64,000 nt of DNA, taken from positions 229,958,001 to 230,022,000 of the forward strand of contig OZ024743.1 of NCBI GenBank assembly GCA_964016885.1. Reading direction: 5' to 3'. The notes beneath the pieces were generated by a model. It saw only the letters and a list, made by a program, of their open reading frames with translations. It did no database searches and was not told where the DNA came from. A program made the translations under genes and the position numbers. Of the stretch, positions 1-60,385 are shown piece by piece. The stretch comes from Eledone cirrhosa. Lineage: Eukaryota. Numbering within the stretch: position 1 is the first letter of the stretch; each line of letters starts with the position of its first letter.

Positions 1-3000
1 ATGGTGGTTGTGGTATTGGTGGTTGTGGTAATGGTGTTTGTGGTTGTGGTAATGGTGGTTGTGGTAATGGTGGTTGTGGTAATGGTGGTTGTGGTAATGG
101 TTTTTGTGGTAATGGTGGTTTTGGTAATGGTGGTTGTGGTATTGGTGGTTGTGGTAATGGTGGTGTGGTAATGGTGGTGTGGTAATGGTGGTTGTGGTAT
201 TGGTGGTTGTGGTAATGGTGGTTGTGGTATTTTGTGGTTGTGGTAATGGTGGTGTGGTAATGGTGGTGTGGTAATGGTGGTTGTGGTACTGGTGGTTGTG
301 GTAATGGTGGTTGTGGTAATGATGGTTGTGGTAATGGTGGTTGTGGTAATGGTAGTTGTGGTATTGGTGGTTGTGGTATTGGTGGTTGTGGTAATGGTGG
401 TTGTGGTAATGGTGGTTGTGGTATTGGTGGTTGCGGTAATGGTGGGTGTGGTAATGGTGGTTGTGGTACTGGTGGTTGTGGTAATGGTGGTTGTGGTAAT
501 GATGGTTGTGGTAATGGTGGTTGTGGTAATGATGTTTGTAGTAATAGTGTTGGTTATGTTTGTGGTATTGGTGGTTATTGTTGTGGTATTGGTGGTTGTG
601 GTACTGCTGTTTGTGCTAATGGGGGTTATGTTTGTGGTAATGATAGTTATGGTTGTGGCAATGGTGGTAGGTGGTAATTGTGGTTTTGGAAATGGTGGTT
701 ATGGTTGTGGTAATTGTAGTTATGGTTGTAGTAATGTTGGTTATGGTTGTGGTAATGCTGGTTGTGGTAATGGTGGTTATGGTTGTGGTAATGGTGGTTA
801 TGGTTGTAGTAATGGTGGTTATGGTTGTGGTAATTGTGGTTGTGGTAATGGTGGTTATGGTTGTGGTAATGGTGGTTATGGTTGTGGTAATGGTGGTTAT
901 GGATGTGGTAATGGTGGCTGGTTGTAATTGTGGTTGTGGTAATGGTGGTTATCGTTGTGGTAATGGTGGTTGTGCTAACGGCGGTTGTGGTAATGGTGGT
1001 TGTGTTAATGGTGGTTGTGGTAATGGTGTTTGTGGTAATGGTGGTTGTGGTAATGGTGGTTGTGGTAATGGTAGTTGTGATAATGGTGGCTGTGGTAATG
1101 GTGGTGGTGGTGGTAATGGTGTTTGTGGTAATGGTGGTTGTGCTAATGGTGGTTGTGGTAATGGTGGTGTGGTAATGGTGTTTGTGGTAATGGTGGTTGT
1201 GGTAATGGTGGTTGTGATAATGGTGGTTGTGATAATGGTGGCTGTGGTAATGGTGGTGTGGTGGTAATGGTGTTTGTGGTAATGGTGGTTGTGGTAATGG
1301 TGGTTGTGGTAATGGTGGTTGTGATAATGGTGGCTGTGGTAATGGTGGTGGTGGTGGTAATGGTGTTTGTGGTAATGGTGGTTGTGGTAATGGTGGTTGT
1401 GGTAATGGTGGTTGTGGTAATGGTGGTTGTGGTATTGGTGGTTGTGGTAATGGTGATTGTGGTATTGGTGGTTGTGGTAATGGTGGTTGTCGTATTGGTG
1501 GTTGTGGTAATGGTGGTTGTGGTAATGGTGGTTGTGGTAATGGTAGTTGTGGTATTGGTGGTTGTGGTAATGGTGGTTGTGGTAATGGTGGTTGTAGTAA
1601 TGGTGGTTGTGGTATTGGTGGTTGTGGTAATGGTGTGTGTGGTTGTGGTAATGGTGGTTGTGGTAATGGTGGTTGTGGTAATGGTGGTTGTGGTAATGGT
1701 TTTTGTGTTAATGGTGGTTGTGGTAATGGTGGTTGTGGTAATTGTGGTTGTGGTAATGGTGGTTGTGGTAATGGTGGTTGTGGTAATGGTGGTTGTGGTA
1801 TTGTTGGTTGTGGTAATGGTGGTGTTGAAATGGTGGTTGTGGTATTGGTGGTTGTGGTAATGGTGATTGTGGTATTGGTGGTTGTGGTAATGGTGGTTGT
1901 GGTATTGGTGGTTGTGGTAATGGTGGTTGTGGTGATGGTGGTTGTGGTAATGGTGGTTGTGGTATTGGTGGTTGTGGTAATGGTGGTTGTGGTAATGGTG
2001 GTTGTGGTATTGGTGGTTGTGATAATGGTGGTTGTGGTTGTAGTAATGGTTGTTGTGGTAATGGTGGTTGTGGTAATGGAGGTTGTGGTATTGGTGGTTG
2101 TGGTAATGGTGATTGTGGTATTGGTGGTTGTGGTAATGGTGGTTGTGGTATTGGTGGTTGTGGTAATGGTGGTTGTGGTAATGGTGGTTGTGGTAATGGT
2201 AGTTGTGGTATTGGTGGTTGTGGTATTGGTGGTTGTGGTAATGGTGGTTGTGGTAATGGTGGTTGTGGTATTGGTGGTTGCGGTAATGGTGGGTGTGGTA
2301 ATGGTGGTTGTAGTAATGGTGGTTGTGGTATTGGTGGTTGTGGTAATGGTGGTTGTGGTAATGGTGGTTGTGGTATTGGTGGTTGTGGTAATGGTGGTTG
2401 TGGTATTGGTGGTTGTGGTAATGGTGGTGTGGTAATGGTGGTGTGGTAATGGTGGTTGTGGTACTGGTGGTTGTGGTAATGGTGGTTGTGGTAATGATGA
2501 TTGTGGTAATGGTGGTTGTGGTAATGATGTTTGTAGTAATGGTGTTGGTTATGTTTGTGGTATTGGTGGTTATTGTTGTGGTATTGGTGGTTGTGGTACT
2601 GCTGTTTGTGCTAATGGGGGTTATGTTTGTGGTAATGATAGTTATGGTTGTGGCAATGGTGGTAGGTGGTAATTGTGGTTTTGGAAATGGTGGTTATGGT
2701 TGTGGTAATTGTAGTTATGGTTGTAGTAATGTTGGTTATGGTTGTGGTAATGCTGGTTGTGGTAATGGTGGTTATGGTTGTGGTAATGGTGGTTATGGTT
2801 GTAGTAATGGTAGTTATGGTTGTGGTAATTGTGGTTGTGGTAATTGTGGTTATGGTTGTGGTAATGGTGGTTATGGTTGTGGTAATGGTGGTTATGGATG
2901 TGGTAATGGTGGCTGGTTGTAATTGTGGTTGTGGTAATGGTGGTTATCGTTGTGGTAATGGTGGTTGTGCTAACGGCGGTTGTGGTAATGGTGGTTGTGT

Positions 3001-3552
3001 TAATGGTGGTTGTGGTAATGGTGTTTGTGGTAATGGTGGTTGTGGTAATGGTGGTTGTGGTAATGGTGGTTGTGATAATGGTGGCTGTGGTAATGGTGGT
3101 GGTGGTGGTAATGGTGTTTGTGGTAATGGTGGTTGTGCTAATGGTGGTTGTGGTAATGGTGGTTGTGGTAATGGTGTTTGTGGTAATGGTTGTTGTGGTA
3201 ATGTTGGTTGTGCTAATGGTGGTTGTGATAAAGGTGGTTCTGGTAATGGTGGTTGTGGTAATGGTGTTTGTGGTAATGGTGGTTGTGGTAATGGTGGTCG
3301 TGGTAATGTTGGTTGTGGTAATGGTGGTTGTGGTAATGGTGGTTGTGGTATTGGTGGTTGTGGTAATGGTGGTTGTGGTATTGGTGGTTGTGGTAATGGT
3401 GGTCGTGGTAATGGTGGTTGTGGTAATGGTGGTTGTGGTATTAGTGGTTGTGGTTATGGTGGTTGTGGTATTGTTGGTTGTGGTATTGGTGGTTGTGGTA
3501 ATGGTGGTCGTGGTAATGGTGGTTGTTGTAATGGTGGTTGTGGTATTTGTGG
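1..3552. repeat. 15-bp minisatellite (GGTAATGGTGGTTGT)n with 21-bp variant blocks and an internal duplication
   Basis: Unit is directly visible. The degenerate block ~448-1165 recurs at ~2443-3160 (offset 1995; ORF-track pairs 671/2666 and 930/2925). Occasional 1-nt indels break the frames. Confidence 0.95.
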
Positions 3553-3689
3553 TTTACTAGCAATGGAAATAAAAATTACCAGGAATATAATGATGTTTAT
3601 TAGTATAATTATGATTCTAATTTCGATGGCATGCTTATTATGATGGATCATGGTGAAGAATGGAAGGAAGATGAAGTGGAATGAAATTA

Positions 3690-5665: not shown

Positions 5666-5891
5666 CGCACACACACTCACGTACATGCGCGTTTGTTTGC
5701 GTGTATACGTGTTCGGATCTACAAATGTGTACAATGATATATGGTTATATGTTCCTACGTATGCATATATAGATGTCTATGAATACATGCGTTGTATCTA
5801 GTTCTTACACCATACCCCCTCTCTCTCTCCATCACTCACTCTATGTATGCGTGTATGTGTATAAGAGAATATATATATATATATATATATA

Positions 5892-8181
5892 GTTTCGTTA
5901 ACAAATATATCAATATGCCCAGACATGCAGATATATTGCCCTTGGTATGACAGTGTGGCTTTAGCTCATTGTAGGATAACTAGTATACTACAGAGCCGTT
6001 ATAGTTATAGGAATAACCAAAGAGTGCTTAGAAATACATTATTTTATTAGCTAACAGTGTTTCATCCATACCCCATGGCAGGAATCACCAGATCCTATAA
6101 ACAAGTGTATATCAGTAGTTGCATGCTCCATCGAGCTGCGTCACCAGAACAAGGTCCCAGCAGGGGTCCCGAGGCCAGCGCTATATGGAACAAGAAAGAA
6201 TACATGGTGCACATAATGTCATAAAATGTCTTAAAAAATTTAAAAATTACACTAAAAATGTATCACTTAAATCGTGCAATAGATGATAAAGAGGTTGGAG
6301 AGGGTAGCAAGGGATGAGTGAAGGTATTTCTCAGCATGATCAGAAACAATAAGAAAATAATAAAAAAGTACAAAAATACAGGGATAAGAAAAGAGATAAA
6401 TATAAAAATACAAAACAATAATGGAACAACAAGCCCGGCAACCTCCCAAAATATAAGACAAAGCAAAGCATAGATACATCAAAGCACAAGCAGTGCAAAA
6501 ACAGGGTGTACAGGCAGATTAAGAGAGTTTTCAAGCATGAGTCTGTGAAAAGAATAGTTGGTTAGCAGTGGTGCAGCCTTACATGTATGATAGTCCATAT
6601 GAGGTACTCCAAATATATCGCCATGTAACAGGTTGATTCTCCTCATCATATCCGCACCTTACGAACCACATCGATATGCTCCAGTTCCGAACGTTAAGTG
6701 AGATAACACTATTTTTTCAAAACCTATACCCAGGGGATTTATCACAATAGGCGGTCTGGGATATATACCTAAAATCTAAAATAAAAAATAAAAGAAAGTA
6801 CGACGAGTTAAAGAAATGTATGGTACATACAGCCGGCACAGATGTGAGGAAATTGAAAACACGCCAGGTCCGCAGAAACTGGCATTCCCCAAAATCCTCA
6901 CGTTCGGTCGCTCAATCCAACGTGCCAGGTGAAATTCACTGTATGTCCAAGTTGGCGTTCAACCAATGTATCGTACCGCATACAACTATAACACAGTAAA
7001 TACAAATCGTGATGGCTATCCCGTTACATATAGAGAAAAAGTGTATATAGGAAACTCCGCTTCCAGAATCACATATGGCAGAATGAGCAGATAATGTTAT
7101 AATAATAGGCGGGCTTATTATAGTGAGTGCAAATTTCTGTAGAATATATAGATATATATAGACGAGAGAACTCACAGCCAAACCTGTCAATGACAGTTAT
7201 GTTATTTATATGTCCACCACGTAGTTTTCGTTTAGATTATTGACTCCGGAGGTTGCAATCCATTCACAGTCGTGTGTGACCCCTCCTGGGTCGACGGGAG
7301 TTCAATATCCAGTGCTGCACTTTGCCTTGAGTGTGGTTCTATAATTCATCAAATCTGGATCACAATACATATTCAACTAACTCTAACTTTCAAAGATTAG
7401 TCTCTCGCTAGTAACACATAACGGTAGTCCGAATATAAACACAGGAAGTGGCAGTGTACCTATGAAAGTTATGGGAGGTAATTCGCGTCATAAAGGGCGG
7501 ATTCATTAGATATCCAACGGGATGCTAGGGGCGAGTCTTTTGTTTGATTCGAAGCCCTCAGCGATCCACCACCCCTTCCCCCCGAGGCTTGGTCGATTCA
7601 GCGGCGCCGAGCCCACACGATTTGCTACCATAGTTCACTATATTAGGTTAGATCTATTACACACTTTAGGGTTAAGGTTAACTAGACCCCGGGTGCCCAA
7701 TTCACCCGCTTTATAGCTGCGGTGGGGTTTTCTGGGGTTTCGACAGACTATTGTGCTGTGCTATCAGTTAGCGCACAATGGGTGTGTTTATAAACCATAC
7801 TAACATGGTTAGTGTGGGTATGTACCTATATAGGGTCAAACTGTGCTAGGTATAGTGAAAAGCCTTAAGTAGGTTCTACCCCAGGGTTCCTGGCGTGTGG
7901 TCCAATAAGATGAACTAGGAAAGAGAGGAAGAAAAGTAAGAGAGGGGGAGAAGAGAAGGGGTATTAGAGTAGTCTATATACACCTGAAGGGCAGTTATCG
8001 TCACAAAGGAACCAGGATGCAGAGCGGCGTGGTTTTACGTAGGCCAGACAGATGGAGCATGCAACTACTGATATACACTTGTTTATAGGCTCTGATGATT
8101 CCTGTAATGGGGTATGGATGAAACAATGTTAGCAAATAAAACAATGTATTTCTAAGCACTCGTTGGTTATTCCTATAACTA

Positions 8182-8185
<4 letters not shown>
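5892..8185. mobile_element. 2.3 kb non-coding element between (TA)n tracts with 135-bp hammerhead-bearing inverted repeats
   Basis: 5998-6132 is the reverse complement of 8051-8185 with scattered mismatches. There is a ~106-bp one-sided tail at 5892-5997 and (TA)n on both sides. Confidence 0.8.
8082..8140 (+). ncRNA. Type I hammerhead ribozyme motif
   Basis: gct-CTGATGA(8092-8098)-ttcc..ggat-GAAAC-aat-GTT-agc. Stem I gct/agc is extended by tttat/ataaa. The mirror copy at 6043-6101(-) has a mutated core (CTGGTGA). Confidence 0.7.
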
Positions 8186-11866: not shown

Positions 11867-12469
11867 CTATATGCATTCTCCATCGCTCCATTCATTAAAT
11901 AATCCCATGATTTGTGGTCTCTTCGGTCTTAGTACCACACACATACAATTGGACTGTTGAAGTCTACAGACGTGTTTTTTAAAGACTCTCCTAAACTCAC
12001 AGAACCTAACATTATCTCTCTTCTGAAACCCCGGAAAATATAATTTGTGACTACGTGTTTACCCACAAACTTGTAGTTACGGATTTTAACTGCAAAACTT
12101 CAATTTCAGCATATATTATTATTATAATATACACTTGTTTTTTAATGTAACCTAATAACCAAAATGTCATACACATACGAAAGAGTATTAAGAAAAAAAA
12201 ATGTAAAATCAACACGTTTAAAACAAAAGAAATTAGTCTGAGAATGAAAGTGTATAGTTTTGTCTCTCCCAACAGAAAATATAGACGCTTCATGTCTAAA
12301 TCGAATTGGTGATAATAACCGCCCAAATGTTTATAATACGCAGACGGTGAAGCAGATTCAAAGCAAAATTAATCATATTCAGGTCTCATTCAAATATATA
12401 AATAGAGACACACCCAAACCCATACGTACATATAAATAAATATAAATAAATATATATTTATATATATAT

Positions 12470-13128
12470 AAACAATTAAGTTAAAAATGTACATCCATAT
12501 ATGTATACTGAAATACTAGTATGCATATGAATACACACACGTATACATATGTAGATGTACCAAGTCTTTCACTGGTTACTTTACTGTGAGTATCCAGCTA
12601 TTCTGTATGTAAACACACAGACAAACCGGTTTTTAGAGTCATACTGGTTTTTGAGGAAACACCTTTCCTCTATTCTCCAGAAAGCCAGACAAGGAATATT
12701 GAACTAGTTTCGTTGTTGTTACAACTCATCAGCAATATTTACCTATCTACCGGTCTTTCTGGAGAATCGTAAAAGCACATATCGTTATATGCTTTTTCTA
12801 TGAAAATTAGTAGTGGACAGACTAATTTGCATAGAGTGTGAGTACGTACCGGTTCAACGGAGACGATAAAAACAAATAACGAAACGAAATTAAATTTCGT
12901 TTCGTTTGTAACTCACTTTTGTATGACTGACGCTTAAACAATTAAGTTAAAAATGTACATCCATATATGTATACTGAAATACTAGTATGCATATGAATAC
13001 ACACACGTATACATATGTAGATGTACCAAGTCTTTCACTGGTTACTTTACTGTGAGTATTTGTTTAAGCGTCAGTCATACAAAAGTGAGTTACAAACGAA
13101 ACGAAATTTAATTTCGTTTCGTTATTTG

Positions 13129-13134
<6 letters not shown>
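12470..13134 (-). mobile_element. Retrozyme-like element: 466-bp unit with 124-bp terminal redundancy and a 75-bp inverted segment, inside TA-rich microsatellite
   Basis: 12470-12593 is identical to 12936-13059; 12867-12941 is the reverse complement of 13060-13134; internal hammerhead present. Confidence 0.8.
12695..12739 (-). ncRNA. Minimal type I hammerhead ribozyme
   Basis: Minus strand AATATTG-CTGATGA-GTTGT aac(a) ACAAC-GAAAC-TA-GTT-CAATATT. Perfect 7-bp stem I, palindromic ACTAGT loop, and distal pairing TTCTCCAGAAAG/CTTTCTGGAGAA. Confidence 0.85.
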
Positions 13135-13206
<72 letters not shown>

Positions 13207-13222
13207 TAAATAAATATATATT

Positions 13223-13257
<35 letters not shown>

Positions 13258-13260
<3 letters not shown>

Positions 13261-13476
13261 GGCGCGTGGCTGAGTGGTTAGTTATTGGATTCGCAATCGT
13301 GAGGTTGTGAGTTCAATTCCCGAACTGGGTGATGCGTTATGTCCTTGGGCAAGACACTTTATTTCACGTTGCTCCTTCTACCTGGAGTTGCGACCGATAG
13401 ATAGTATTAGCAATTGGAAAAACCAATGGAAACACTGTTTCCTTGGTCCGATTTGACGAAAAAAGTCGACCGACTG
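13258..13476 (+). mobile_element. tRNA-derived CORE-type SINE family B
   Basis: A box TGGCTGAGTGG, B box GAGTTCAATTCC, CORE-like TGTCCTTGGGCAAGACACTT; close copy at 15596-15802. Confidence 0.85.
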
Positions 13477-13486
13477 TTTATATATA

Positions 13487-13683
13487 TAGAAGTGGTTAGA
13501 CAACAGTTAGTTCACCATACCGAGAACAATCGTTTCACCTTAGCGGATCCTTGGCTGAGGATCCGCTAAGGTGAAACAATTGTTCTCTGTATGGTGAACT
13601 AACTGTTGTGTAACCACTTCTACCTAACTCGTCCCATGGACTGAGTGCTCTACCACTATGGATATTACCTTCCAGTGTTCTAC

Positions 13684-13687
<4 letters not shown>
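13487..13687 (+). mobile_element. Fold-back mini-element family F3 (136-bp palindrome + 65-bp tail) with hammerhead motif
   Basis: Palindrome 13487-13622; CTGAGGA(13555)..GAAAC-AATT-GTT-ctc; TA runs on both sides; second copy at 59007-59225. Confidence 0.8.
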
Positions 13688-15595: not shown

Positions 15596-15802
15596 TGGCT
15601 GAGGGGTTATAGAATTGGATTGGCAATCGTGAGGTTGTGAGTTCGATGCCCGGACCGGATGATGCGTTATATCCTTGAGCAAGACACATTATTTCACGTT
15701 GCTCCTTCTACCTGCAGTTGCGACCGGTAGATTATATTAGCAATTGGAAAGACCAATGGAAACCTTGTTTCCTCGGTCCGATTTGACGAAAGTCGATCGA
15801 CT
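15596..15802 (+). mobile_element. CORE-type SINE family B
   Basis: Colinear with 13258-13476. Confidence 0.85.
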
Positions 15803-17459: not shown

Positions 17460-17539
<80 letters not shown>

Positions 17540-17576
17540 ATATACACGGGTGTGTATGATTGTATAGAAGCTTATT

Positions 17577-17953
17577 TTAATAAAAGGAATTCCGACTTTG
17601 TCTGATTTACTCGTTTTATTTACAATCCTTTAATATTTATAATAGTATTATAATGAAATAGTATGGTAGAATATTAAATGTTATATGTTAATTGAACAAG
17701 TACTTTCATGCTTTCGCAATCTTCAGGTTTATATTCTGTGGTGACAATCAAGTTTGCAATTTTCACAGTTGAAAATTGCAAACTTGACTGTCACCACAAA
17801 ATATGAACCTGAAGATTGCGAAAGCATGAAAGTACTTGTTCAATTAACACCTAACATTTAATAATCTATCATACTATTTGATTCTAATACCATTATACAT
17901 TTTAAAGGATTGTAAATAAAACGATAAATCAGACAACGTTGGAATTCCTTTTA

Positions 17954-17957
<4 letters not shown>
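17577..17957. mobile_element. ~380-bp palindromic mini-element family F5 with one hammerhead per strand
   Basis: Whole-length inverted repeat centred at ~17767. 17804-17842(+) reads TGAAC-CTGAAGA-tTGC GAAA GCAt-GAAA-GTAC-TT-GTTCA; mirror at 17693-17731(-). Second copy at 59311-59695. Confidence 0.85.
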
Positions 17958-18016: not shown

Positions 18017-18394
18017 AAATGAAAATCCGAAGGCAAGGTGAAATTCCAATCATTTAATCACGACACATGTTTCAATAAGAGATAAAACGATTGTGAAGCC
18101 ATGATCGATTATCACTGATCTCATCAGATGAACATGAATTGTCATCAAATTCTTGATATGAGGGAGAAAAATAACGATGTTCTCCCATATAATTCCCTCA
18201 TATGAAGACACACCAGTCATAGACACGGCGACTGCCAATAACTTCAGTCGCCGTGTCTATGAATACAATTCATTTTCACCTGATGAGCTCAGTGATAATC
18301 GATCATGGCTTCACAATCGATCTATCTCTTATTGAAACATGTGTCGTGATTAAATGATTGGAATTTTACCTTGCCTTCGGATTTTCATTTTGAT
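18013..18394. mobile_element. ~380-bp fold-back family F6 with one hammerhead per strand
   Basis: Arms ~18013-18141 and ~18266-18394, inner hairpin 18218-18261. 18271-18356(+) reads TCAC-CTGATGA-long stem II-GAAAC-ATGT-GTC-GTGA; the mirror core is intact. Confidence 0.85.
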
Positions 18395-24345: not shown

Positions 24346-24347
<2 letters not shown>

Positions 24348-24545
24348 CAATGAAAGTGTAGTAAGGAACCAGGTGGACCATAACGCACCAGAGTACTCGA
24401 CACTTAGGGTAGTAGTGTGGGTAAGAGGAAAAGAGTCAAGATCCCAACGGCTGAGCTCTGACCGATTCGACAGCTAGATCCGAACTGAGTACAGATCTAG
24501 CTGTCGAAACTGCCGGAGCTAAGCCATCGGGGTCCTGACTATTTT

Positions 24546-24548
<3 letters not shown>
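24346..24548 (-). mobile_element. Fold-back mini-element family F4 (palindrome 24426-24548 plus tail)
   Basis: (TA)n on both sides; homologs at 58721-58944, 60197-60385 and 15521-15588. Confidence 0.8.
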
Positions 24549-27522: not shown

Positions 27523-30425
27523 TGATTTCATTTATTAGCCACAAGGACCGACATGTAGGGGACAATACAAAGACAGGGAGCGTGGGGCTTTACAATAAGG
27601 TCGAATAAAAGTGCACAATAGCAAGACTAATTTAACAATGAAGATATAAAAAATATAAAATAGACTATGCATAAATATAACAAAATAAATTCTCCGATAG
27701 AGGGTGGACGACCCTGGGGTGACTCGGGTACCCCACCAATCCTGAACCACCCTGCGCTTCTAAGGCACCCAGGGAGAGCACCCCTCTCCTCAAGTTAGCT
27801 AGCCTATAGGCGCATGGTCAAAGTAGGCCCATTCACACGGGCCATTCTCTCCACATTCATCCACCTCTTAGCAGCACTTCTCTTTCCACCCTCACCTTCC
27901 TTTCGAGGTGAAACTTGAAAAAGTTGATGAGGGATTGGCCGATGAGAAAAGTGTCTGTCTTCAGTCCCTTTAATCTGATCCACCATATAACCTCTTTCGC
28001 AACTGCCACCAGACAGAGGAAAATTTCCAGCTCTAAGGAAGGCGGCGGGTCGATCTTCACTATGGACTCGGCCGATAGATGGATTCGCTCCACACGCGAC
28101 AGTAGCTGTTCGACATAACTCCACAAGTCAGTAATGCACGGACATTGGACAAATGCGTGCAGAACGGTTTCGTCGTTCTGTGCACATCTTGGGCAGGTCC
28201 ATCTGACAGCATTTCCATGCCTGTAGAGTTTATCTCGAACCGGCAGTGCCCCCCGGTAGCACTGCCAAGCGAGGGATTTCTTGAAATTATCCATCGTCCC
28301 CGGCTTGAAAGTCCTCTGGTACAGACTGGTCAGTTCGACTTCGTCGAGGCCCAAAGCTTCTCCGAGTGCATCATCGCACTTGCCCACCACTAATCCTCTA
28401 TAGAACTCGAGAGTGGAAGTTCCACTGATCGCATTGCCCACTTGGTAGAGGGCAGTGAGTGCCTGGCAACATTCCAGGTGCCAGTCACCCAGTCTCAGTC
28501 TCTTCTTGACCCAGGACTGCAACTCAGTCAAAGAAACGAGCTGCGGAAAGGCCCGTCTTATAAACGGCGACCACACCTTTTCACCGTTTAGGCAGAATAT
28601 CTGGAGATGTCGCGCATCATTAGCCACGGTATGCCCAGCCCTCCGCGTAGAGGGGCTGGCGGCAGATGGACCGCCTCACCAACAGAACTTGTCCTCTCCA
28701 CAAGAATTTGAAGAGGAGCCGTTCCAACTTGATGAGGCGCGGACAGGGGCAAGGCACGACGCTCAGGCGGTAGTAGATGACGGACACTATGTACGCATTC
28801 GCCAACTCCGCGCGACCTTTCAGTGATAGCTTCCTCCCAGCCCATTTTTGGGTGAGACTGGCTACTCTGCTCGTTACCTCGTCCCAATTCTTTTTCCACC
28901 TGGAGGTCTGGTCCGAACCAAACCCCGAGCAACTTTACCGGTCCGTCCGTCCAGCGCCCCACGACGCTGTCGGACGGCATGGGCTTGCCTCTCCAGGTTC
29001 CGAGCTGCAAGCCCACCGACTTTTCCGGGTTAAGTTTGGCCCCTGTCAACCTTTCATATTCCTTCAATAAGGTGCCGACCACCTCGATTTCTGAGGTCTT
29101 CGACACCATCACGGTGATGTCGTCCGCATAACCGACACAGCATTTCCACGCCCCGGTTCTAGCGGGCATCCCTGCAACAGCGCCAGCTTCCGCAGTAAAG
29201 GCTCGAGATTCAATACGTACAGAAGGGAAGAGAGAGGGCACCCTTGGCGGACCGATCGGGAGAGCCGAAATGGTTCCGAGAGGTGGCCATTAACCTTGAC
29301 CACCGAGCGTGCGCTGCTGTGCATTGCAGCGATCCAGCTTCTGAAGACAGGGCCGAAGCCAGCTGCTTTGAGGACAAATTCCAGATACCGATGGTCGATC
29401 ATATCAAATGATTTCGATTGATCTAAATTGATCAGTGCCCCCACCGAAGCCAGGTTTACACCCTACCCTCTCTAAGATGTATCGCATGAGGTGGAGATTG
29501 TCGTGTATGGACCTGGCTGGGATTGCGCAAGTTTGCGCCTGCCCAACCAAATCCTCGACGACAAGAGCCAATCTCTTTGCTAACACCTTGGCCAAAATCT
29601 TAAACTCTGTGTTGAGCAGAGTTATGGGCCTAAAGTTGTTTAATGTATCCCTCTTGTTCTCGTCTTTCCTTATCAGCGTCACCACTCCCCTGCTCACAGA
29701 ACTGGGAATACTCCCATTCTGCTGCCAGTTGCAGTAGAGTGCTTCGAGGAGATCGGAGAACAAGTCTGGCATATTTACGTAAAGCTCGTAGGGCAGGCCA
29801 TCCAAACCGGATGACGTGCGCCTCATGCAACCGACAACGGCTGAAGTAATCAGCGTCGACCGTCGAGATGCGCGGCAACCCGTCAAGGTAGGGACTGAAA
29901 TGCGCTACTCTCTCTGACTCGTCACTCTCCCCGAACAACCGAGCAAAGAGCTGGCGAAAGGCCTCACACATCCGCTTGGAATCGCTTATCTCGTATCCGT
30001 CTCGGTCCGCCAAAGACCGAATTGTGGTTTTATTACCACGCTGCGCCTCCACCACGCGGGCCCATCGAACAGCTCTGGTTCCCTTGTTTCTCAGTGCACG
30101 CGCCTTAGCTCTGACAATGCAACATTCGTGTTTCGCATTGAAGAAATGGTCTAATGCCATTCTCGCAGCTAGCACGTCAGTTACAATGCCACTACAAATA
30201 GCCTCGTCTAACTTATCTATCAGCTCCCCCTCCTTTCTATTTTCTATTACGCTAGCTCTTTGCTGAACTCTATCAAAGTTATTCTAATCACTCTTTTGAA
30301 AGCCCCCACCATCTGTTGTTGATGATCCCCCCTGTCAACTTTTGCTTAACTAAATTGTTGACTCGGTCTCTGTAAGCCTTACGTGCCGGAAATGACATGT
30401 TCAGCTTCCAGTAACCCGGTCCCAA
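27523..30425 (-). mobile_element. L1/Tx1-clade non-LTR retrotransposon, 5'-truncated, frameshifted ORF2
   Basis: GYWKLN end of the APE domain; GLDGLPYELY, FRPITLLNTEFKILAK, RQGCPLS, YADD; C-terminal CPRC..ETVLHAFVQC; AATAAA, then (TTA)n at 27497-27522. Confidence 0.95.
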
Positions 30426-31388
30426 CCTAAAGGGAAGAAGACTCACGTGGTGGATAGTGTATTACGGAATCGCGCCCGTAAGTTTTTGATTTTTAATATA
30501 TTTAAAACAATTGTGATATAACAATTCTTAGTACAAATGGGACATAAATGACCAGGTTTAGCTCTCAGGAAATGAGACCCATAATATCATGTTATATCGC
30601 TCAAATATTCAATTATGTATTATAAATTTTATATTCAAAAAAGAAAATGGTTATAAATGGAAGAAAACCCCTCTGTCTACACTATATAGAGCAGCCAAAT
30701 AACAGCAAATTCACCACCAAAACAACCTAGATACACCACCTATCCCATCACCCCTCTGTTTACACTAAATAAAACAGCCAGATAACGGCAATTTCACCAA
30801 TCCCAGCATAATAATAATAATTACTATTATTGTATCTCAAGTTTTCTCAAAATGTTTAATTAAAATATTAAGGTAATATGTCAACACATATTAAACGTAC
30901 GCGACAAACCACATAGTTATACAGATCAAACAAACGCATCCTACTACAGTCTATTCAACAGAACTCAGTAACGACAACGCCATCACTACAGTAACCGCCG
31001 CCTCCACACCATCATTGCTACCACTATCCCATCACCGCCGCCACCACTCCTTCATTGTCACCACCACTATTCCCCGACTACCTTCTGTTAACTTAAGAAA
31101 GGGGAAGGTGGCGGTATCAGTACACAAGGGAGAGGCTATCAAAAGATATAAATAGACTGACTTAGTGACCCGGTCAAACGTCAACGACTATGGCACTGCT
31201 GGCTCCCCCTTTCCCCACCAACAATAGAACAAGGCCCAGCACCACTACCGACATAGCCAACAACAACAACAGGCAACTTCAACAAAAAGTATATCATTAA
31301 TAATAATTTCATTCTTAAGCCATGCAATGCTCACATTAAGGAACCACTCATGATAATAACAATTTAAAAACAACAAAAAAAGAAAACC

Positions 31389-33645
31389 CCGTGACCAAGA
31401 AATACCGGGATGGCGGCCGATGGGTAATAGCCGTGTCTCTAGGGGAGGACGACCCCTCTAGTCATGGTTGACACTCGTCCTAGAAGTGGTAACACGAAAT
31501 TATTACCCCTTGGCGGTTAAGGATAAAACGCGACAAAATAAAGTAAATGTCAAATGATAAAATCTCATACCGGATCGGCCGTCACCCGGAGGAACCAGAG
31601 GAACCAGACTGGGGTCGAAAAATCAGCTAATGGTTCAAACCTTCCCATCACTTCGGAGCTGGAGACCTCCCATAACTGGAATACTCCTACTGTTGGCCCT
31701 CCATGCTCACCACCAAGAAATCCAAAGAAAAAGAGAGAAAAATGGTCAAGAGAAGACAATAAAGAAGTCCTTGAGGCTTTCTACACTGCCATGTACTACC
31801 CATCAAATAGATCGAATACAGAACAGACATATATCAACTGGAAAAAGAAACATCCCGAAAACAGAGGCTATATTGTCAGTAACAAACTAGCCAATATACG
31901 AAGAAATATTGTTAAAAAAAGTTACTAACTGATATAGAAATTTATCAGATCAAGCTATTAGCACAAAGTCAGCGAAGGGAAAATGAAACATGTGTCAGTG
32001 AAAACGAGGTAAATTGTAACACTTCGAATCCCAGGGTTGGGGCAGAATCACTGACAGCAGAACAAATTAAAGAAAGGATCGAAAAAGAGGAGGGAGTGCA
32101 TGCTCAAAATGAAACGCACAATGAAAACAATGAGATCATAAATGATATAGAAAAGAATGAGAATGAACTTGCCAATTTGAAGGATGAAATTATGATCGAA
32201 TGGATGAAAATGAAAGAATCTGGACATGGGGGAACGAGACACTCTCCCTAAGATCCAGAATTCCAAGCAGAACCAAAAGATAATACAAAAGACTAACATA
32301 ATTCTCAAAAACATTATCTTCACAAACAAACTAAACATTACTGATCTAAATCATCTCTATTATGCATCGGCTAAAGTCACCACTCACTTATGTGGAGTAA
32401 AAATGAAAAAACAAAGGAATTCCTACAAGAAATCTACTTGGCAAGAGAACATCAATCGCAAAATAAGCCTTCTTCGATCTGACATAGAAATTTTAACAAG
32501 CTACAAAGTAGGTGAACATGTTAAACAAACTAAACTTAGAAAATTGAAAAGAAAGTACAGTATAAAATCAACAAGCGACATAGACATGCTGATAGAAATA
32601 ATCGAGCAAAAAGTGTCGGCCAAAGCTGCTCGTATAAGGCGCTTTGAGAAACGATCTAGGTTCTATATGGACAATAATATGTTCAAAAACAACCAAGGAA
32701 ACTCTACAGAAAAATTGGGAAGTCAACAATAACTGCTAAATCATTACCACCCAAGGAGGAAGTGCAAGAATTCTGGGAAAAGATCTGGGCTGATGAAAAC
32801 TTCATAATATACATGCCCCATGGATAGACAGACAAATGAAAGATGCAGCTCACCTTGAGGAACACATATGGGAAAATATAACAGTTGAACAGTTGCGTTT
32901 GGCTCTTAGAAAAACCAGCAAATGGAAATCCTCAGGAAAAGACAAAATACCAAATTTTTGGATAAATGCATTCACAGAGTCTCATGAGCTGTTAGCCCAA
33001 CTTTACAATGAAATAGTTAAGGAGCCAGAAAAGATACCATCATGGCTAGTTAAAGGCATTACATTCCTACTTCCGAAGATTGATGAGACAAACAATCCCC
33101 AAAATTACAGACCGATAACTTGCTTGACCACAATGTATAACATTTTAACATCAGTCCTAACTGAATATACATATGACCACCTGATAACAAATGATCTATT
33201 TCCCAATGAGCAGAAAGGGTGTAAAGGAAGCTCATATGGTTGTAAAAGTCAGATTTTGGTTAACATAATGATACTGGAAGATAATAGATACAAATATCTA
33301 TCAATTGCTTGGATAGGTTATAAAAAAGCATTCGATAGTTTGACACACAGTTGGATTGAAAAATGTTTAGAGATTGTCAAAATATCTCCCGTTGTCAGGA
33401 GGTTCATGTCATTCAGTGTGAAGACAAGGAAAACGACACTCCTTTTGAATAGTGAAACAAAATCACTGGAAGCTGGAGAAGTTAATATTAATTGTGGAAT
33501 TTTTCAGGGTGACTCTTTATCACTCTTTTATTCTGCATCGCATTTATACCATTAAGTAAAATGCTCAATGAAACAAAACATGGATATAAAATCTATGACA
33601 AAACCATTAATCACTTGTTCTACATGGATGACATGATACTTTGCA
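31389..33645 (+). mobile_element. R4/Dong-clade (RLE) LINE copy 1, 3'-truncated just after YMDD
   Basis: WKSSGKD, NYRPITCL, EQKGC, KKAFDS, IFQGDSLS and NHLFYMDD (33621-33632); several frameshifts. Confidence 0.9.
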
Positions 33646-33649
33646 AAAA

Positions 33650-36600
33650 AGTCTCCAAGCGCTCCCTCTCGGTCTTCGATTGACCCAGGATTGCAGCTCC
33701 GTCAAGGAGATGAGCTGGGGAAAGACGCGTCTAGCAAACGGCGAGCACACCTGATCACCGTCGAGGAAGAGGTGGAGATGTCGTAGCCTGAGCGCGTGTC
33801 TGCACATCATCAGACACGGCATGCCAAGACCTCCACGTAGCGGGTGTTGACAGCAGATGGACCACCTGACCATCGGAGCGCGTCCCTTCCACAAAAAGTG
33901 AAAGAGCAAACGCTCCAGCGCAGTCAGGCGGGGCTTAGGACAATGTACGGCGGTCAGGCGGTAGTAGATGACGGACGCGATATACGCGTTAGCCACCTCT
34001 GCTTGACCTTTCAGAGATAGCTTCCTCTCCGCCCATTTCTGGGTGAGAGAAGCCACCCTGCTCGTCACCTCGTCCCAGTTTTTGTCCGTCTGGAGGTCCG
34101 GACCGTACCAGACCCCTAGTAATTTAACCGGTCCGTCCGTCCAGTGCCCGACGACGCTGTTGGACTGCATGGACCTTCCTCTCCAGGTGCCGAGCTGCAG
34201 GCCCACTGACTTTTCCTGGTTGATCATTGCTCTTGTTACCGCTTCGTATTCTCTTAGTGTATTGCCGATCGCCTCGATGTATTTGGCGTTCGACACCACT
34301 ACGGTGACATCCTCCGCATATGCTGACACGGATCTTCCGCATCCTAGTTTGCGCGGACTCCCTCAACGTTTCCAGTTTGTGCAGTAATGGATCGATATCA
34401 ATACGTACAAGAGGGACGAAAGGGGACATCCTTGGCGGACCCAGCGTATGATGTTGAACGGTTCCGAAAGGTGACCGTTCACTCTCACCACAGAGCAGAT
34501 GTCGCTGTGCATGACAGCGATCCAGCCTCTGAAGACGGGCCCAAAGCCAGCCGCCCTCAATACTGTCGCTAGGTAACGATGGTCGACCCTATCGAAAGCT
34601 TTCGACTGATCTAAATTGATCAAGGACCCACACGTGCCAGGTACCCTAGCTACCCTCTCTACGATGTATCGCAAGAGATGGAGGTTGACGCGGATGGATC
34701 TGTCGGGAATGGCGCATGTCTGCGCCTTTCCCACCAGACCACCAACGACAAGCGCCTACCTCTTTGCTAGCACCTTGACAAAATCTTGAACTCTGTGTTT
34801 AGCAGAGTTATGGGCCTGAAATTATCAATGTTATCCCCCTTGTTCGGATCCTTTCTCAGCAGCGCCACCGCTCCTCGGCTCACAGATTGGGAATTCTCTC
34901 GTTCTGTTGCCAGTTGCAGTAGACGTCCGCCAAGAGGCCTCCGAACAAGTCTGGCATCTGTACGTAAAGTTCATAGGGCAGAACATCCAAACCAGGCGAT
35001 TTACCCCTTGTGCAGCCAGTCATTGCCTCCTGTACTTCAGCGGCTGTTATCGGCTTTTCGCAACACTCCGCCTCAGTGGCCGAGAGCCGCGGCAGTCCGT
35101 CGAGGTAGACACTAAAGTCCATCCCTCGACCCGGCTCGTCGCTGCTCCCGAACAGCTAAGCGAAGTGTCGCTGAAAAGCTTCACACTTTTGCCCGAGATC
35201 GAGTATACGCCCGTCGTGACCCACCAAAGACCGGATTGTAGGTTTGTTGCCCTGACGCGCCTCCACCGATCGAGCCCATTGAACGGCTTTCGTTCCCTCG
35301 TGTCTGAGAGCACGCACCCAAGCTCTAACAACGCCTCCTTCGTGCTTTGCATTGAAGAATTGGTAAAGGGCCAATTTCGCCGCAAGTACGTCGGTTGCGA
35401 TGCCTTTGCTAAACGCCTCGTCTAATTTTCTAGCTAGTTCTCCCTCTGCTCTATTTTCCTATATAGCTAAAGCCTTACTAAACCTAATGGACTCTATTCT
35501 AATCGCTCTTTTCAGAGAAAACCACCACTTGTTGTTGACGATGGCCCCCTTCAACGCCCGCTTAACTAGTTTGTTAATCCGGTCTCTGTAGGCCTTGCGT
35601 GCTGGTAAGAACGCGTTAGCTTCCAGTAGCCGGGTCCTCGTCTATGAAGCCTATCTAAGTCAAGCACACATATCACGAATTTGTGGTCCGTGTAGCTGAC
35701 TATCTTGAATTGTGGACAGCCTATGCTAGACCTATCTATTTCCCTACGAAATACTCTACCTAGATATGATCTGGATGAGCCGATGCGGTTTGTCCAAGTC
35801 CACATTGGCACATTCGGGAAATCCAATCGGTACCTGTCAGACAGTTCAAAACGCTTGAGCAGGTTGGTGAGGCTCTTGCACTCTCCTCCCCTATCCGCTA
35901 ATCCCACTTAGCCCTAGCGTGCATCTAAGATCCCGTTCCAGTCGCCCACTAACACTAAAGAGCGGGACGTTCCAAGAAAGGTCTCCAGACGCCGGAAGAA
36001 ATAGGCCACCCTGCTCCTGTCGAGGCATATACGGCCACTAGCCTGAAAGCTTGCCCGTCTCGGCTGGTCACGTCCAGCACCACCAACTTGCCTTCTGGGT
36101 CCAGGAAGATGGCCCGTATGGCGAGATCCAAACCTCTCCGAAAAAGCACAGCAACTCCTAGCCCCGATCCAGGACGGCTGGCATATGCGTACACATCGTA
36201 GCCGCCGGAGATCGGTGTGAAGGCCCGTGCTTCGGAGATTCTGGTCTCGCTGATGGCCACTACATCTATGTTTAGTGACCTGAGGTCGTTGAGCAGGTGG
36301 CCCTGCTTCCATGCTGACCCCAAGCCACGCGCATTTATGCTGCCTATTCTGAGTGAGGTCATGTGAAATGGAGTGGAAAATATGGGAAAGACCATTTACC
36401 TTACTTCTCGTAGAAGAAGGATGGTTTCTCCATCCTTTTCATTGCTTGTGGCCTACTCCGGAAGGATGTCCTTATAAATCCTCCTGGAGAGTGCTTGTCG
36501 GAAGTCTCCGATGTCTTTGGGGAATCTTTGTTTTAGTGTCGTGTACTTTTTCTGTGTGATGCGAGTAATTTGTATGTGTGGAGGTGGTGTGAACTTTTGG

Positions 36601-38094
36601 GGTGTTGTGTAGTCTATTTCTGTGATTAGTTGTGTTGGATGTAGTGTAATAATTGGTTGTTGTTCAAATTTAATGCTGTGTAGTGTGTATCGTTTTGGTT
36701 GTTATGTTTTGTTTCCGTTTGTTGTGGGTTTGTTTCTGTTTCGCTTTTTGGTGGATTTTGTAGTGTTGGTGATAGTGGTGTTGAGGTTAATGATGGTGAT
36801 GGTGTTGGTGTTTGTGGTGATGGAGTTGGTGATGCTGATGTGGATGGTGGCATAGCTGTCCTAACTTTTTTGTTTGATAGTTTATTTGTTTCCTTCTGTA
36901 TTTTGTTTTTGGAGTGGGAAGGAAGAGGATTTTTTCTTTTTTTGCTTCTTTTTCTTTTTTCCGTTTTTCCTGATACCGTTTCCCACTCCTCGTCGTCACA
37001 ATCTGGCTCCAGTTGCGATAGGTCGGGGAGTGGAAAATCCTCCACATGCGTTGGTTTTGGTACTAGTTCTGGCGCGTTGGGTGGTGGTGGTGTTGGTTTT
37101 GTTACTGTTGCTGAGGTTGTTGCTGTTACAGTTGTTTCTATTGTTGCTGCTACAGTTGTTGCTGCCATTTCTGCTGCTGGTGGTGTTGATGGTTGAGTCA
37201 CTGGGGTGGGTAAGAGAGGTGGCCTCAACCTTTTAGCCCTCGACGATTACAGTGAGGTGGCTGCCGTCAGTGAGGTCTATTACCTCTGGGATCTCCTCAA
37301 TGCTTTTTGGTCCGCTTGGATCAGGAGCTCCATCCCAGATCCGGACCAGTTCTCCTGCTTTTCTTTCGCTATTTCGATTATGTTGGTGTTGGCCTCGATG
37401 CCGGCGAGGATGTCAGCCATTAGCCAGGGAATTTCGATGGTCGGCGGAACGTGGGTCACCCTGATATTCACGAGTCTCTGGCCACAATAGCTTGGGACGA
37501 ATGTGAAGTCGTCACTTCTTAATGGGGACATGGAGTGGTCTCTGGCCTCCTGTGGTGTTCCAAAGAACACGTCCACGGTTCCATATTTCTGCTCACGTCT
37601 GGTGTGGGTTTTTTTCGTCCACACATGTCCCAAGGCTTTTTTGATTTGGGACTCGGATGCCCGCTCCACTCGGCGCGATTTTATGTTAATCGTCCGATAA
37701 GACACGGTGCATAGGCGCCGATGCTCCACAATATTAGGTGGGGGGGGGGGGGCTGACCCTGTACCCATCTTTCTTTACCATTCTCTTGGCTTCATCTAAT
37801 TCCTCCTGAGTAACCTGGATTGCTTCCCACTTTTTGGCTGCTTTGGCCGAAGGCACGGTGGTTTTGTTGTTATTCTCATTGTTGTTGCTGTTGATGTTAT
37901 CGTTATTTTTGTTATTGTTATTTTTAGTTCCAGTTGTGGTGGTGGTGCCGTCAGTGGTGTTCGGTGTGGAAGCAAATTGTGTGACCTTATAAACAGTTAA
38001 CAACAAACATTTTCCATAAATGGCAATTTTAAACAAACGAAAACAACAAACCTTTGCGGACTTCACGATAATACGATTTCCTACGTTGGTCGCC
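33650..38094 (-). mobile_element. L1/Tx1-clade element with ORF1 and APE-RT ORF2, 3'-truncated, degenerate
   Basis: ORF2 starts at 36362: MTSLRIGSINARGL, VAISET, LVGDWN, TDHK, GYWKL, KSPGLD, DQSKAFDRVDH, RQGCPLS, YAED. The ORF1-like region ~36440-37980 is frameshifted at the G-run near 37745. The 5' end abuts (AAT)n. Confidence 0.95.
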
Positions 38095-39460
38095 AATAAT
38101 AATAATAATAATAATAATGATAATAATAATAATAATAATCATAATAATATTACCACTACCACAAAATCACCATCACCAAAAAAATCTAGCCAAATACAGA
38201 AAGGCACCATCCCTATGGTACTGCTGCCCCATCGCACCGTCGCCGCTGCATCATCGCTACCGCCACTATTCCCTCACTACTTAAGAGAGGGGTGGTGATG
38301 CCGTTACACATGAAAAGAAGCGATGAAGGTATCAAAAGATATAAATAGACTGGGTTAGTGACTCGGTCAAACAGCTAACAACAATAACAACAATACCAAA
38401 ATAATTATGTTGTTATATCTCTAAACTCTCTCAAAATGTTTAGTTTAAACGATGTCAAATCTAAACTATAATATAATAATAATAAGTGCTTCTGCTTTTG
38501 GCACGGGGCCCGCAATTGTCCCGGTGTGTTGCAGGTACTTTGTGGTGTTATAAAAAAATTATAGTCGAAAAATTATAGAACACAACACCAGACAGAGGCA
38601 AACGCAACAACAGACACGGCTTTCAAAAGTTTTGAACACAACAACCCCTACTTCCCTTAGCAGCAGCAGCAACACCAACACTAGTAACCGATGTTACTGG
38701 CCTTGTAAAACGAAAAACGCAAAGGAAAAAAACAAACAAAAAAAGGGAGAGAGAAAAAGGAAAGAAAGGCTAAGTCAGACATTCAAACATTACAAAGAAA
38801 CTTGTGCTTGTTTTTTTTTGTTTTTTTTTTTTGGTTTTTATCTATTTGTCTGTTTGTTTATTTATGTTCGTCTACAGCGTGACGGTGCCACGCTAAAATC
38901 ACTGGGGGTGAAGAAATCACCGGTAGTTATGTAAACATACATTCAGCAATCCTCAACGTGAGTGCTTAAATGTCGAACCTAAACAGTTCGAATAACGGTG
39001 CAGTGGAGATTGGAATGTCATGTGACAGACACTCACCCAGCAGGTGCTCCCTGGCCCAGCAGCAGGGACCTGGCTGTCATCCAAATACTGCTGGTGTTGG
39101 AGGAAGAAGAAGAAGAAAAGGGACCAGAACCAACTGGACGAAAGAAATGAATAGAGCTGTTATGCAATGTTACCTGAAGAGTAACCCCAAGGAAAAAGGC
39201 TATAGGAAACGGATGCATAACATCTGGAACGAGATTGGTCTATTTAAATTAGATGAACAAAAATTGGCCGGGCAGGCTCGGGTAAAAAAAAATAATGGGT
39301 GGATAAGCGAGCTGGAACTGGAGGAACTGAGCAGAGAGATTAGGTTGGAAATGGAGAGTGGAGTATGCCAGGCAAACAAGCCAGTGAGAAATGAAGGTGA
39401 AGAGGTTGAGAGAACGGAGGAACCATCCGAGGCAGACAATGATCTGAATGCTGAAATAAA

Positions 39461-39643
39461 TAATTGTTTCTACTTTAGGCACAAGGCAAGCAAATACCCA
39501 GTGCATTACTGGTACTTTATTTTATCGACCCCGTAAGGATGAAAGGCATAGTCAACCTCGGCGGGATTTGAACTCAGATCGTAATACATGGCGGAATACA
39601 TGGCGTCCGACCCTCTACCGATACTGCCAATCCACCGCCCTTG
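39461..39643 (-). mobile_element. SINE family A inserted in the R4/Dong ORF
   Basis: 16-bp TSD TGAATGCTGAAATAAA at 39445-39460 and 39644-39659. Confidence 0.95.
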
Positions 39644-42561: not shown

Positions 42562-42673
42562 TGAATATCTGAGGCTGCAGGTAGTGGCTTGAATATCTGA
42601 GGCTACAGGTAGTGGCTTCAATATCTGAGGCTGCAGGTAGTGGCTTGAATATCTGAGGCTGCAGGTAGTGGCT
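42562..42673 (+). repeat. 4 x 28-bp tandem repeat at the end of the R4/Dong ORF
   Basis: Unit TGAATATCTGAGGCTGCAGGTAGTGGCT, nearly perfect. Confidence 0.95.
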
Positions 42674-58720: not shown

Positions 58721-58941
58721 AACGAAGGAAATGTGGTAAGAAACCAGGTGGGCCATAACGCACCAAAGTACTACATACTTAGGGTAGTAGAGTGGGTAAT
58801 AGGAACGAGTAGGACCCCGACGGATGAGCTCAAGCCGTTTCGACGGCTAATTATGGATTTAAAAAAAAAGAAATTTTTTTTTTTCAGTCCAGAATTAGCC
58901 GTCGAGACGGCTTGAGCTCAGCCGTCGGGGTCCTACTCGTT

Positions 58942-58944
<3 letters not shown>
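58721..58944 (-). mobile_element. Family F4 fold-back plus tail
   Basis: Palindrome 58800-58944 with an A/T-run centre; arm GTCGAAACGGCTTGAGCTCA(G/T)CCGTCGGGGTC; (TA)n on both sides. Confidence 0.85.
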
Positions 58945-59006
<62 letters not shown>

Positions 59007-59225
59007 TAGAAGTGGTTACACAACAGTTAGTTCACCATACGAAGAACAATTGTTTCACCTTAACGGAACCTCAGCTCGTAATGGACATGGTTATACGGAA
59101 TAGCTAAGGTGAAACAATTGTTCTCGGTATGGTGAACTAACTGTTCCGTAACAGCTTCTACCTAACTCGTTCCATGGACTGAGTGCTCTACCACTACGGA
59201 TATTACCTTCCAGTGTTCTACCACT
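59007..59225 (+). mobile_element. Family F3 fold-back plus tail
   Basis: Colinear with 13487-13687 but with a different centre. Left arm on minus: acgag-CTGAGGT..GAAACAATTGTT-cttcgt. Confidence 0.85.
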
Positions 59226-59228
59226 ATA

Positions 59229-59310
<82 letters not shown>

Positions 59311-59314
<4 letters not shown>

Positions 59315-59695
59315 AGAGGAATTCCAACTTTGTCTGATTAACTCGTTTTATTTACAATCCTTTAAAATATATAATGGTATTATAATGAAATAGTATAATA
59401 GAATATTAAATTCTAAGTGTTAATTGAACAAGTACTTTCATGCTTTCGCAATCTTCAGGTTCATAATATGTGGTGACAGTCGAGTTTGCAATTTTCAACT
59501 GTGAAAGTTGAAAATTGCAAACTCGACTGTCACCACATATTATGAACCTGAAGATTGCGAAAGCATGAACGTACTTGTTCAATTAACACTTAGAATTTAA
59601 TATTCTATCATACTATTTCATTATAATACCATTATATATTTTAAAGGATTGTAAATAAAACGAGTAAATCAGACAATGTTGGAATTCCTCTTATT
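59311..59695. mobile_element. Family F5 near-perfect 385-bp palindrome
   Basis: Intact hammerhead at 59425-59463(-); the right-arm copy at 59543-59581(+) has GAAA changed to GAAC. Confidence 0.9.
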
Positions 59696-59745
59696 AATAT
59701 AATCTTCTATACACAATCATACACACCCGTGTATATTTACCTATC

Positions 59746-59777
<32 letters not shown>

Positions 59778-60196: not shown

Positions 60197-60385
60197 AGGA
60201 AAAAGTATGACCCCGACGGCAGAACTGAAGCCGTTTCGACGCCTATTATCTAGAAATAGCCGTCGAAACGGCTTGTGTTCTGCCGTCGGGGTAATACTTT
60301 TTCCTATTACCCACTCTACTACCCTAAGTATTGAGTACTCTGGTGCGTTATGGTTCATCTTGTTCCTTACCACAATTCCTTCGTT
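60197..60385 (+). mobile_element. Family F4 fold-back plus tail, opposite orientation
   Basis: Palindrome 60197-60305; the tail is the reverse complement of 58721-58799. Confidence 0.85.

Follow-up and report, generated by a model that had tools for sequence, protein, structure and literature searches.

The insert considered here occupies positions 12470-13134 of the window, that is, of the whole stretch of 64,000 nucleotides analyzed, and consists of 665 non-coding bases lying between TA tracts (table 1). An exact-match scan of the window reproduces the layout A-B-C-A-C' put forward in the initial annotation, with one direct repeat (12469-12593 equal to 12935-13059, 125 of 125 bases identical, spacing 466) and one inverted repeat (12866-12941 against 13060-13135, 76 of 76 bases exact). 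The identities claimed for these repeats are thus correct, although the lengths given for them, 124 bp for A and 75 bp for C', omitted one T that is shared with the TA tracts. The 201 duplicated bases show not a single difference, which agrees with the proposal of a recent insertion.

Read along the minus strand, the insert presents the inverted piece followed by A', C', B' and A'. Its direct part amounts to 1.27 units and forms a main body of 590 nt, so that the earlier figure of about 1.4 copies of the unit holds only if the inverted piece is counted in. The latter combines 69 bases of C' with the final 6 bases of A', and opens with 6 bases from the left end of the insert (12936-12941 equal to 12470-12475), exactly the overlap that had been noticed before. 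The joint at 13059/13060 is blunt, having neither microhomology nor extra bases, while 2 bases are common to the TA flank at each outer end. No second copy of the 466-nt unit was found by the exact-match scan elsewhere in the 64,000-nt window. Just to the right of the insert, the sequence at 13258-13400 has a tRNA-like head, with a partial second copy at 15689-15791, and is presumably a SINE. A long G/T-rich minisatellite with a strong strand skew fills positions 1-3600.

Table 1. Features of the insert and its immediate flanks (positions in the window; strand of the unit given in the hammerhead sense)
Feature	Position	Strand	Basis or remark
Left copy of 30-bp AT-only word	12436..12465	.	Possible target duplication, or older microsatellite duplication
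466-nt non-coding unit, strongly self-paired	12470..12935	-	Period 466; fold z -10.6; closed X4 contig
Segment A, first copy (3' end of main body)	12470..12593	-	Repeat match; 2-nt TA overlap with flank
Putative reverse-transcription start site 1	12470	-	On TA tract
Type I hammerhead	12679..12750	-	Helices I, II and III of 7, 5 and 1 bp, respectively; helix I with a bulged extension
Putative start site 2	12866/12867	-	Common terminus (12866) of 12 X1 contigs that are joined to (TA)n
Segment C, 69-nt 'tail' region with 13-bp hairpin	12867..12935	-	Computed fold
Segment A, second copy (5'-truncated partial tandem, pseudo-LTR-like)	12936..13059	-	125/125 versus first copy; same three minor alleles
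Second copy, inverted and severely 5'-truncated (69-nt tail and 6 nt of A)	13060..13134	+	Ends on TA tract
(TA)n of ~66 bases, then right copy of 30-bp word (13200-13229)	13135..13229	.	

Segment B carries a hammerhead on its minus strand, which matches the Rfam family HH9 with 38.6 bits and an E value of 1.3e-8 in 261 nt (1.3e-7 when 2.7 kb are searched), the gathering score of the family, 52, being higher. A loose hammerhead descriptor has seven matches in the window, compared with a mean of 0.13 in 100 block shuffles; a strict one, demanding 5 pairs in helix II and 7 pairs in helix I, is passed by the hammerhead of the insert alone (one of the seven matches) and by none of the 100 shuffles. 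The clean minus-strand motif described earlier is therefore sustained by both the Rfam match and the strict descriptor, and the GUU triplet expected near 12702-12704 is indeed found at 12704-12702, with a predicted cut after 12702. Rfam miRNA matches over the same region lie far below gathering scores and were dismissed as artefacts of TA repeats and fold-back, and a 30-nt stretch of the hammerhead has no exact match in metagenome and viral contigs.

Helix III is formed by one A-U pair over a palindromic tetraloop. According to work on axolotl retrozymes (PMC7229834), a helix III of this type cuts poorly as a monomer and better as a dimer, and the same is reported for metazoan type I motifs (PMC4209133). 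Since helix III is too weak for a monomer, cutting of the present hammerhead is predicted to be dimer-dependent. In computed folds, the best structure of the monomer differs from the active shape and is 7.6 kcal/mol apart from it, and pairing of the palindrome with a second copy contributes -7.2 kcal/mol. Among nine Xenopus dimers tested, eight are described as showing no cutting (bioRxiv 10.64898/2026.07.22.740005). The unit as a whole is rich in hairpins, has a local GC of 0.33-0.35 and pairs with itself far above shuffled sequences, whereas the stop-free stretches of the closed unit do not exceed 60 codons; its characterization as a retrozyme-like non-coding unit can thus be retained on the basis of these short stretches and the type I hammerhead.

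Sequencing runs X1, X10, X4 and X22 (among 24 listed, 20 of them with matches and none recorded as RNA, from 16 studies and 17 organism codes) were compared with a reference spanning 11900-12935, in which 12418-12483 was masked; the left junction and the inversion joint lie outside the sequence compared. Of X22, a run of raw reads from another organism, roughly 1 in 100 reads was sampled and none was placed on the reference, a result that carries no weight at this sampling. One X1 contig of depth 2.8 is identical to the left flank over 518 bases, from which it follows that this run comes from the same species, and we infer from this intergenic contig, together with the total of 16.5 million contigs, that X1 is genomic DNA. 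The summed depth over the unit in X1 is 2.2e5-6.7e5 (median 435,121), against a flank median of 6.35. The ratio of unit to flank is 1.9e4-6.9e4 in three ways of counting, and, summed contig depth not being copy number, the abundance of the unit over the flank is apparently of the order of 10^4-10^5 only. This ratio and the 1053 matching X1 contigs (515 at least 99% alike and 324 that are 95-99% alike) support the view that the unit is multi-copy, as anticipated in the initial annotation.

Twelve X1 contigs stop at 12866, where they are joined to (TA)n, and this is the same end as that of the inverted piece at the locus. Run X4, which has another organism code, yielded one 496-nt contig of depth 4.5 that covers 12506-12935 and then 12484-12535. 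It represents a closed cycle of 466 plus a 30-base overlap, in accord with the proposed closed unit, and either a circle or a tandem would give such a contig. This contig carries three alleles that are rare in X1 or absent from the X1 list; a related species, library carry-over and circular RNA are all open as its source. C runs head to tail into A at the locus itself, in an X1 loose end and in the X4 contig; no array of at least two complete units was seen in these data.

The same data bear on the possibility that no small element exists in its own right and that the insert is just the 5'-truncated end of an autonomous Penelope-like element (PLE), made of its pseudo-LTR and the bases at its start. 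We consider this unlikely, for the unit closes at 466 nt in X4, one X1 loose end runs from C into A, the depth in X1 varies within threefold along the unit, and among the loose ends listed the well-supported exits lead to (TA)n only. Moreover, the unit has no ORF, and helices I and II of its hammerhead are long, which sets it apart from the minimal type of PLEs described in PMC4209133. A rare long parent could nonetheless be missed, since 51 loose ends and differences below 5% fall outside the listing, and the neighbouring fold-back insertions presented below resemble such stubs.

Variants of the family (differences of at least 5%) occur at no fewer than 23 places, none of them listed within the hammerhead (12677-12743) or the tail (12858-12935), where an even spread would put about 3 and about 4, respectively; this comparison is post hoc, involves linked sites and is weak. 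The copy in the window differs from the X1 majority at six places, three of which are in A, and both copies of A carry three family-minor alleles (12566, 12577 and 12592), which implies one template molecule or a clonal lineage. In run X10, from the same organism in another sample and without the flank, the prevailing alleles are those seldom found in X1 (allele shares of 100% versus 17% at 12768, 100% versus 9% at 12847, 79% versus 2% at 12823 and 0% versus 83% at 12749). The dominant variant of X10 is seen on window positions 12660-12895. Its allele profile differs from what random sampling of the genomic copies would give, and could come from an RNA library in which one variant prevails or from a transcribed source copy, but is not counted as expression. 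The family is young, non-coding and high-copy, with a recurring end.

It could be argued that the duplication and inversion were introduced by faulty assembly of a repeat that is high-copy and lies between microsatellites, given that the repeats are 100% identical, that the joints of the locus lie outside the read-compared sequence and that PLE structures are reported to trouble assemblies (PMC8557442). We regard such an error as highly improbable, because X1 contigs independently contain both the join from C to A and the end at 12866 on (TA)n, 518 bases of the left flank are reproduced without a difference in an X1 contig, and the matching biological pattern is found seven more times in the window. 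A DNA-level event without an RNA step, in which the TA tract broke and a tandem satellite remnant was rearranged there by fold-back repair or by a template switch, appears exceedingly improbable in view of the recurring 12866 end on (TA)n, the intact hammerhead, which has no variants among those listed, and the absence of microhomology at the inversion joint, even if TA tracts are break-prone and the unit is hairpin-rich.

We next consider the insertion pattern. In published accounts of PLEs, copies form partial tandems, the 5' end is adjoined by an inverted copy that is itself 5'-truncated, hammerheads lie in the pseudo-LTR and insertion is biased towards (TA)n, with a tail of 30-40 bp at one end only (PMC8557442, the supplement of which lists two Octopus Naiads with (TA)n). 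A like pattern, with target duplications of 8-10 bp, is given in PMC3846280, according to which pseudo-LTR sequences are enough for mobilisation in trans. Purified PLE protein has been reported to cut and extend both strands at AT-rich DNA in vitro, with internal starts on its RNA at two neighbouring sites, between which the tail lies, and hammerhead cleavage was dispensable for insertion by the PLE tested in this way (PMC11167929). The insert has a 5'-truncated upstream copy forming a partial tandem, an inverted copy (13060-13134) that adjoins the 5' end, and an AT-rich (TA)n target at both its ends here as well as in the 12 X1 contigs. It also has a one-sided tail with a recurring end, which measures 69 nt here and 46-107 nt in the neighbours, compared with the published 30-40. 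Judged from sequence features, the combination of partial tandem, inverted 5'-truncated copy, one-sided tail and TA target corresponds, the length of the tail aside, to the published signature of PLE insertion, which the initial annotation did not consider, and is unlike that of L1.

The same layout is repeated in the window. Inverted repeats are present in 12 of the 35 segments of 80-3500 nt that lie between TA tracts, this insert included, and 7 of the other 34 segments have one inverted arm at most 3 bases from the TA tract and an overhang of 46-107 nt opposite. These seven neighbouring insertions belong to four families, their inverted repeats spanning 108-383 aligned bases or having 135-bp arms. 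Three of the seven contain hammerhead descriptor matches (8092, 17809/17726 and 59458) with the tail 3' of the motif, as in the insert, and the palindromic style of helix III is seen in two of these.

Individual families among the inter-TA segments can be described as follows. The copies at 17532-17956 and 59312-59745 are fold-back insertions between TA tracts, 90% alike, whose tail, present on one side only, is 46-51 nt long and whose type I hammerhead motif has a palindromic helix III; they are likely to be PLE stubs. Another fold-back family between TA tracts (24347-24547, 58721-58943 and 60198-60384) has a tail of 80-81 nt, and no hammerhead descriptor match lies inside these three segments. 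A third one (13487-13686 and 59004-59235, 83% alike, tail of 64-75 nt) shows a hammerhead-like core near its fold centre, namely a loose pattern match at 13555 that fails the descriptor. The 2.3-kb insertion at 5891-8185, also between TA tracts, combines inverted arms of 135 bp with an overhang of 107 nt and contains, at 8092, a minimal hammerhead match, and tblastn gave no match between it and 36 PLE proteins. Finally, a nested inverted repeat at 18017-18390 is flush at a TA tract, with 126-bp arms (95%) and a 145-nt overhang.

L1 twin-priming insertions end in a 3' poly(A) and use a one-off internal second priming site. The initial annotation had interpreted the inversion by analogy with this process, and its proposal of two priming events at the TA tract is supported by our results; the analogy itself is not, since a poly(A) end is absent and 12 X1 contigs share the second primed end. 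For the same two reasons, it is very unlikely that a LINE protein carried out twin priming of the L1 type on a retrozyme circle, and this reading is further disfavoured by the inverted piece lying 3' of the first start site and by the long overlapping arms of neighbours with the same layout. It would nevertheless account for the inverted piece running just 6 nt beyond the point where the main copy starts, which looks as though both primers had used one RNA, and LINE remnants are available in the window (RT-like ORFs at 28-42 kb).

The only PLE recognized in the window is a decayed ORF on the minus strand at 61199-63600, which contains RT, a CX4CxxC linker and GIY-YIG and is broken by stops and frameshifts. 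A tblastn search of the window with 36 PLE proteins matched 61262-63603 only, and the best named homologue of this PLE at 61.2-63.6 kb is an Octopus vulgaris protein (60-66%), which makes an octopus the probable host; Pfam returned nothing for the two pieces of the ORF, which were placed by their homologues instead. A hammerhead-like core at 60944 on the minus strand, at the 3' end of this PLE, is degenerate, lacks an Rfam hammerhead match and fails the descriptor. Given that the ORF with RT and GIY-YIG is absent from the insert, the insert is not an autonomous PLE. Exact-match and similarity scans detected no DNA similarity between the single PLE of the window and the 466-nt unit, and no autonomous partner of the unit was found in the window. 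A 15-bp match between 12735-12749 and 59733-59747 (E 0.12) was taken as chance. Several decayed LINE-like RT ORFs are located at 27800-42600. In Octopus vulgaris, PLEs account for 6.83% of the genome, with 31 recently active families and only about 12,000 recent insertions of all kinds, ribozymes being unmentioned in the available text of that study (PMC13282606). Were the host O. vulgaris, this number of insertions would sit badly with the depth estimate of the unit.

With respect to the flanks, the two copies of the 30-bp AT-only word are the only ones in the window. As controls, an interrupted exact repeat of at least 28 across a TA tract was found in 0 of 60 cases and one of 21-25 in 2 of 60, and a repeat longer than 10 in none of the seven neighbouring insertions. 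These values are suggestive of a target duplication, which we hold as a tentative reading; an older slippage duplication is at least as likely. If the word is a target duplication, then the TA run would have been added at or after insertion, and the duplication would be longer than the 8-10 bp reported for PLEs in PMC3846280.

In our view, the insert is quite probably a near-identical copy of a non-coding hammerhead repeat, likely non-autonomous and of retrozyme type, that was likely pasted into a TA microsatellite by a PLE RT-endonuclease. It likely works, as far as its sequence tells, like a non-LTR retrozyme moved by a PLE, and so would be of a kind already known. In the mechanism we propose, the minus strand would be transcribed, tandem transcripts would be cut through a double-hammerhead fold, and the monomers would circularise. 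PLE protein bound near the A/C junction would then cut both strands of the TA tract, after which one DNA end would prime at site 1 (12470) with 2 bases pairing and be extended by 590 nt, crossing the intact ribozyme site and then passing once more through A. The other end would prime at site 2, 69 nt further 3', and be extended by 75 nt only, its cDNA stopping 6 nt past site 1, and the two cDNAs would be joined head to head.

The 590-nt main body bears out the claim that the template RNA was longer than one 466-nt unit and, as it extends across the intact cleavage site, a cut linear monomer could not have been the template without a jump. A circle would give both this body and the shared alleles directly, and all three animals tested in PMC7229834 are reported to make circles; uncut tandem RNA fits the layout equally, because the hammerhead is predicted to be weak alone. 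We thus lean only slightly towards the circle. The chances that the two cDNAs shared one template molecule or used two seem about even: that the second cDNA stopped only 6 nt beyond site 1 is what a collision on a single molecule would produce, but a single case cannot decide this point, since the longer arms of the neighbours show that run-through is usual. A bolder version holds that a PLE dimer would prime one and the same 466-nt hammerhead circle twice, that the second cDNA would halt on meeting the first, and that the telomerase-related enzyme would add (TA)n to the primer end, within a target duplication of 30 bp; this version is doubtful in its entirety and improbable. If true, retrozyme/PLE activity would create the TA microsatellites filling this genome, beyond targeting them.

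How retrozymes move and how PLEs build their tandem and inverted ends are questions that have so far been argued from co-occurrence and pseudo-LTR (pLTR) similarity (PMC7229834; bioRxiv 10.64898/2026.07.22.740005) and from one in vitro system (PMC11167929). The value of the insert is that of a structural footprint linking a retrozyme-type unit to PLE chemistry; it is a single locus and otherwise the expected product of known machinery. A young family of perhaps tens of thousands of near-identical, ORF-less copies would allow both questions to be tested by counting, each copy recording two start sites and the inversion joint. The length distribution of inverted arms would tell one template from two, allele sharing inside insertions would tell circles from tandem transcripts, and empty alleles would show whether TA was added. 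Such a family would also extend retrozyme-type elements to cephalopods.

Compared with known systems, the insert shares two primed ends and a head-to-head joint with the twin-priming inversions of L1, in which two target ends reportedly prime cDNA, and differs from them in the lack of poly(A), in a second site that is recurrent and 3' of the first, and in its TA target. It resembles PLE insertions in having a partial tandem, two start sites and an inverted 5'-truncated copy at the 5' end, in its (TA)n target, and in a tail on one side only with the hammerhead located 5' of it; unlike these, it has no RT-endonuclease ORF, its tail is 69 nt instead of 30-40, its inverted arm overlaps the main end by just 6 nt, and a 30-bp target duplication is possible. 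Non-autonomous Chlamys PLEs, for example MRC1, are likewise ORF-less and form pseudo-LTRs and head-to-tail copies, but they are described as resembling autonomous partners at the 3' end and mostly as lacking canonical hammerheads (PMC8557442), whereas in our window no partner was found.

PLEs have already been proposed as the mobilisers of retrozymes (PMC7229834; bioRxiv 10.64898/2026.07.22.740005). Searches of the literature, limited to main texts, did not find a cephalopod retrozyme or a retrozyme with an inverted tail, and a word search of the main texts of the same two studies returned no inverted-copy or tail structure; the 466-nt family may already be catalogued in a supplement or a repeat database. 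Retrozymes are described as tandem arrays, and an 'active' one has two complete units in the test of bioRxiv 10.64898/2026.07.22.740005, whereas this locus has 1.27 units, one hammerhead and an inverted tail piece and does not count as active in that sense. The length of 466 nt is just over the range of 150-450 given in PMC7229834 and within that of 51-972 in bioRxiv 10.64898/2026.07.22.740005. In its hammerhead, size, non-coding state, GC below 50%, self-pairing and copy number, the unit has several of the features by which non-LTR retrozymes are recognized. It is thus like the metazoan members of this group as these two studies present them, being a non-coding, low-GC and self-pairing unit of a few hundred nucleotides with a type I hammerhead and very high copy number, and its one-pair helix III with a palindromic tetraloop is like that of axolotl HHR_Amex1 (PMC7229834).
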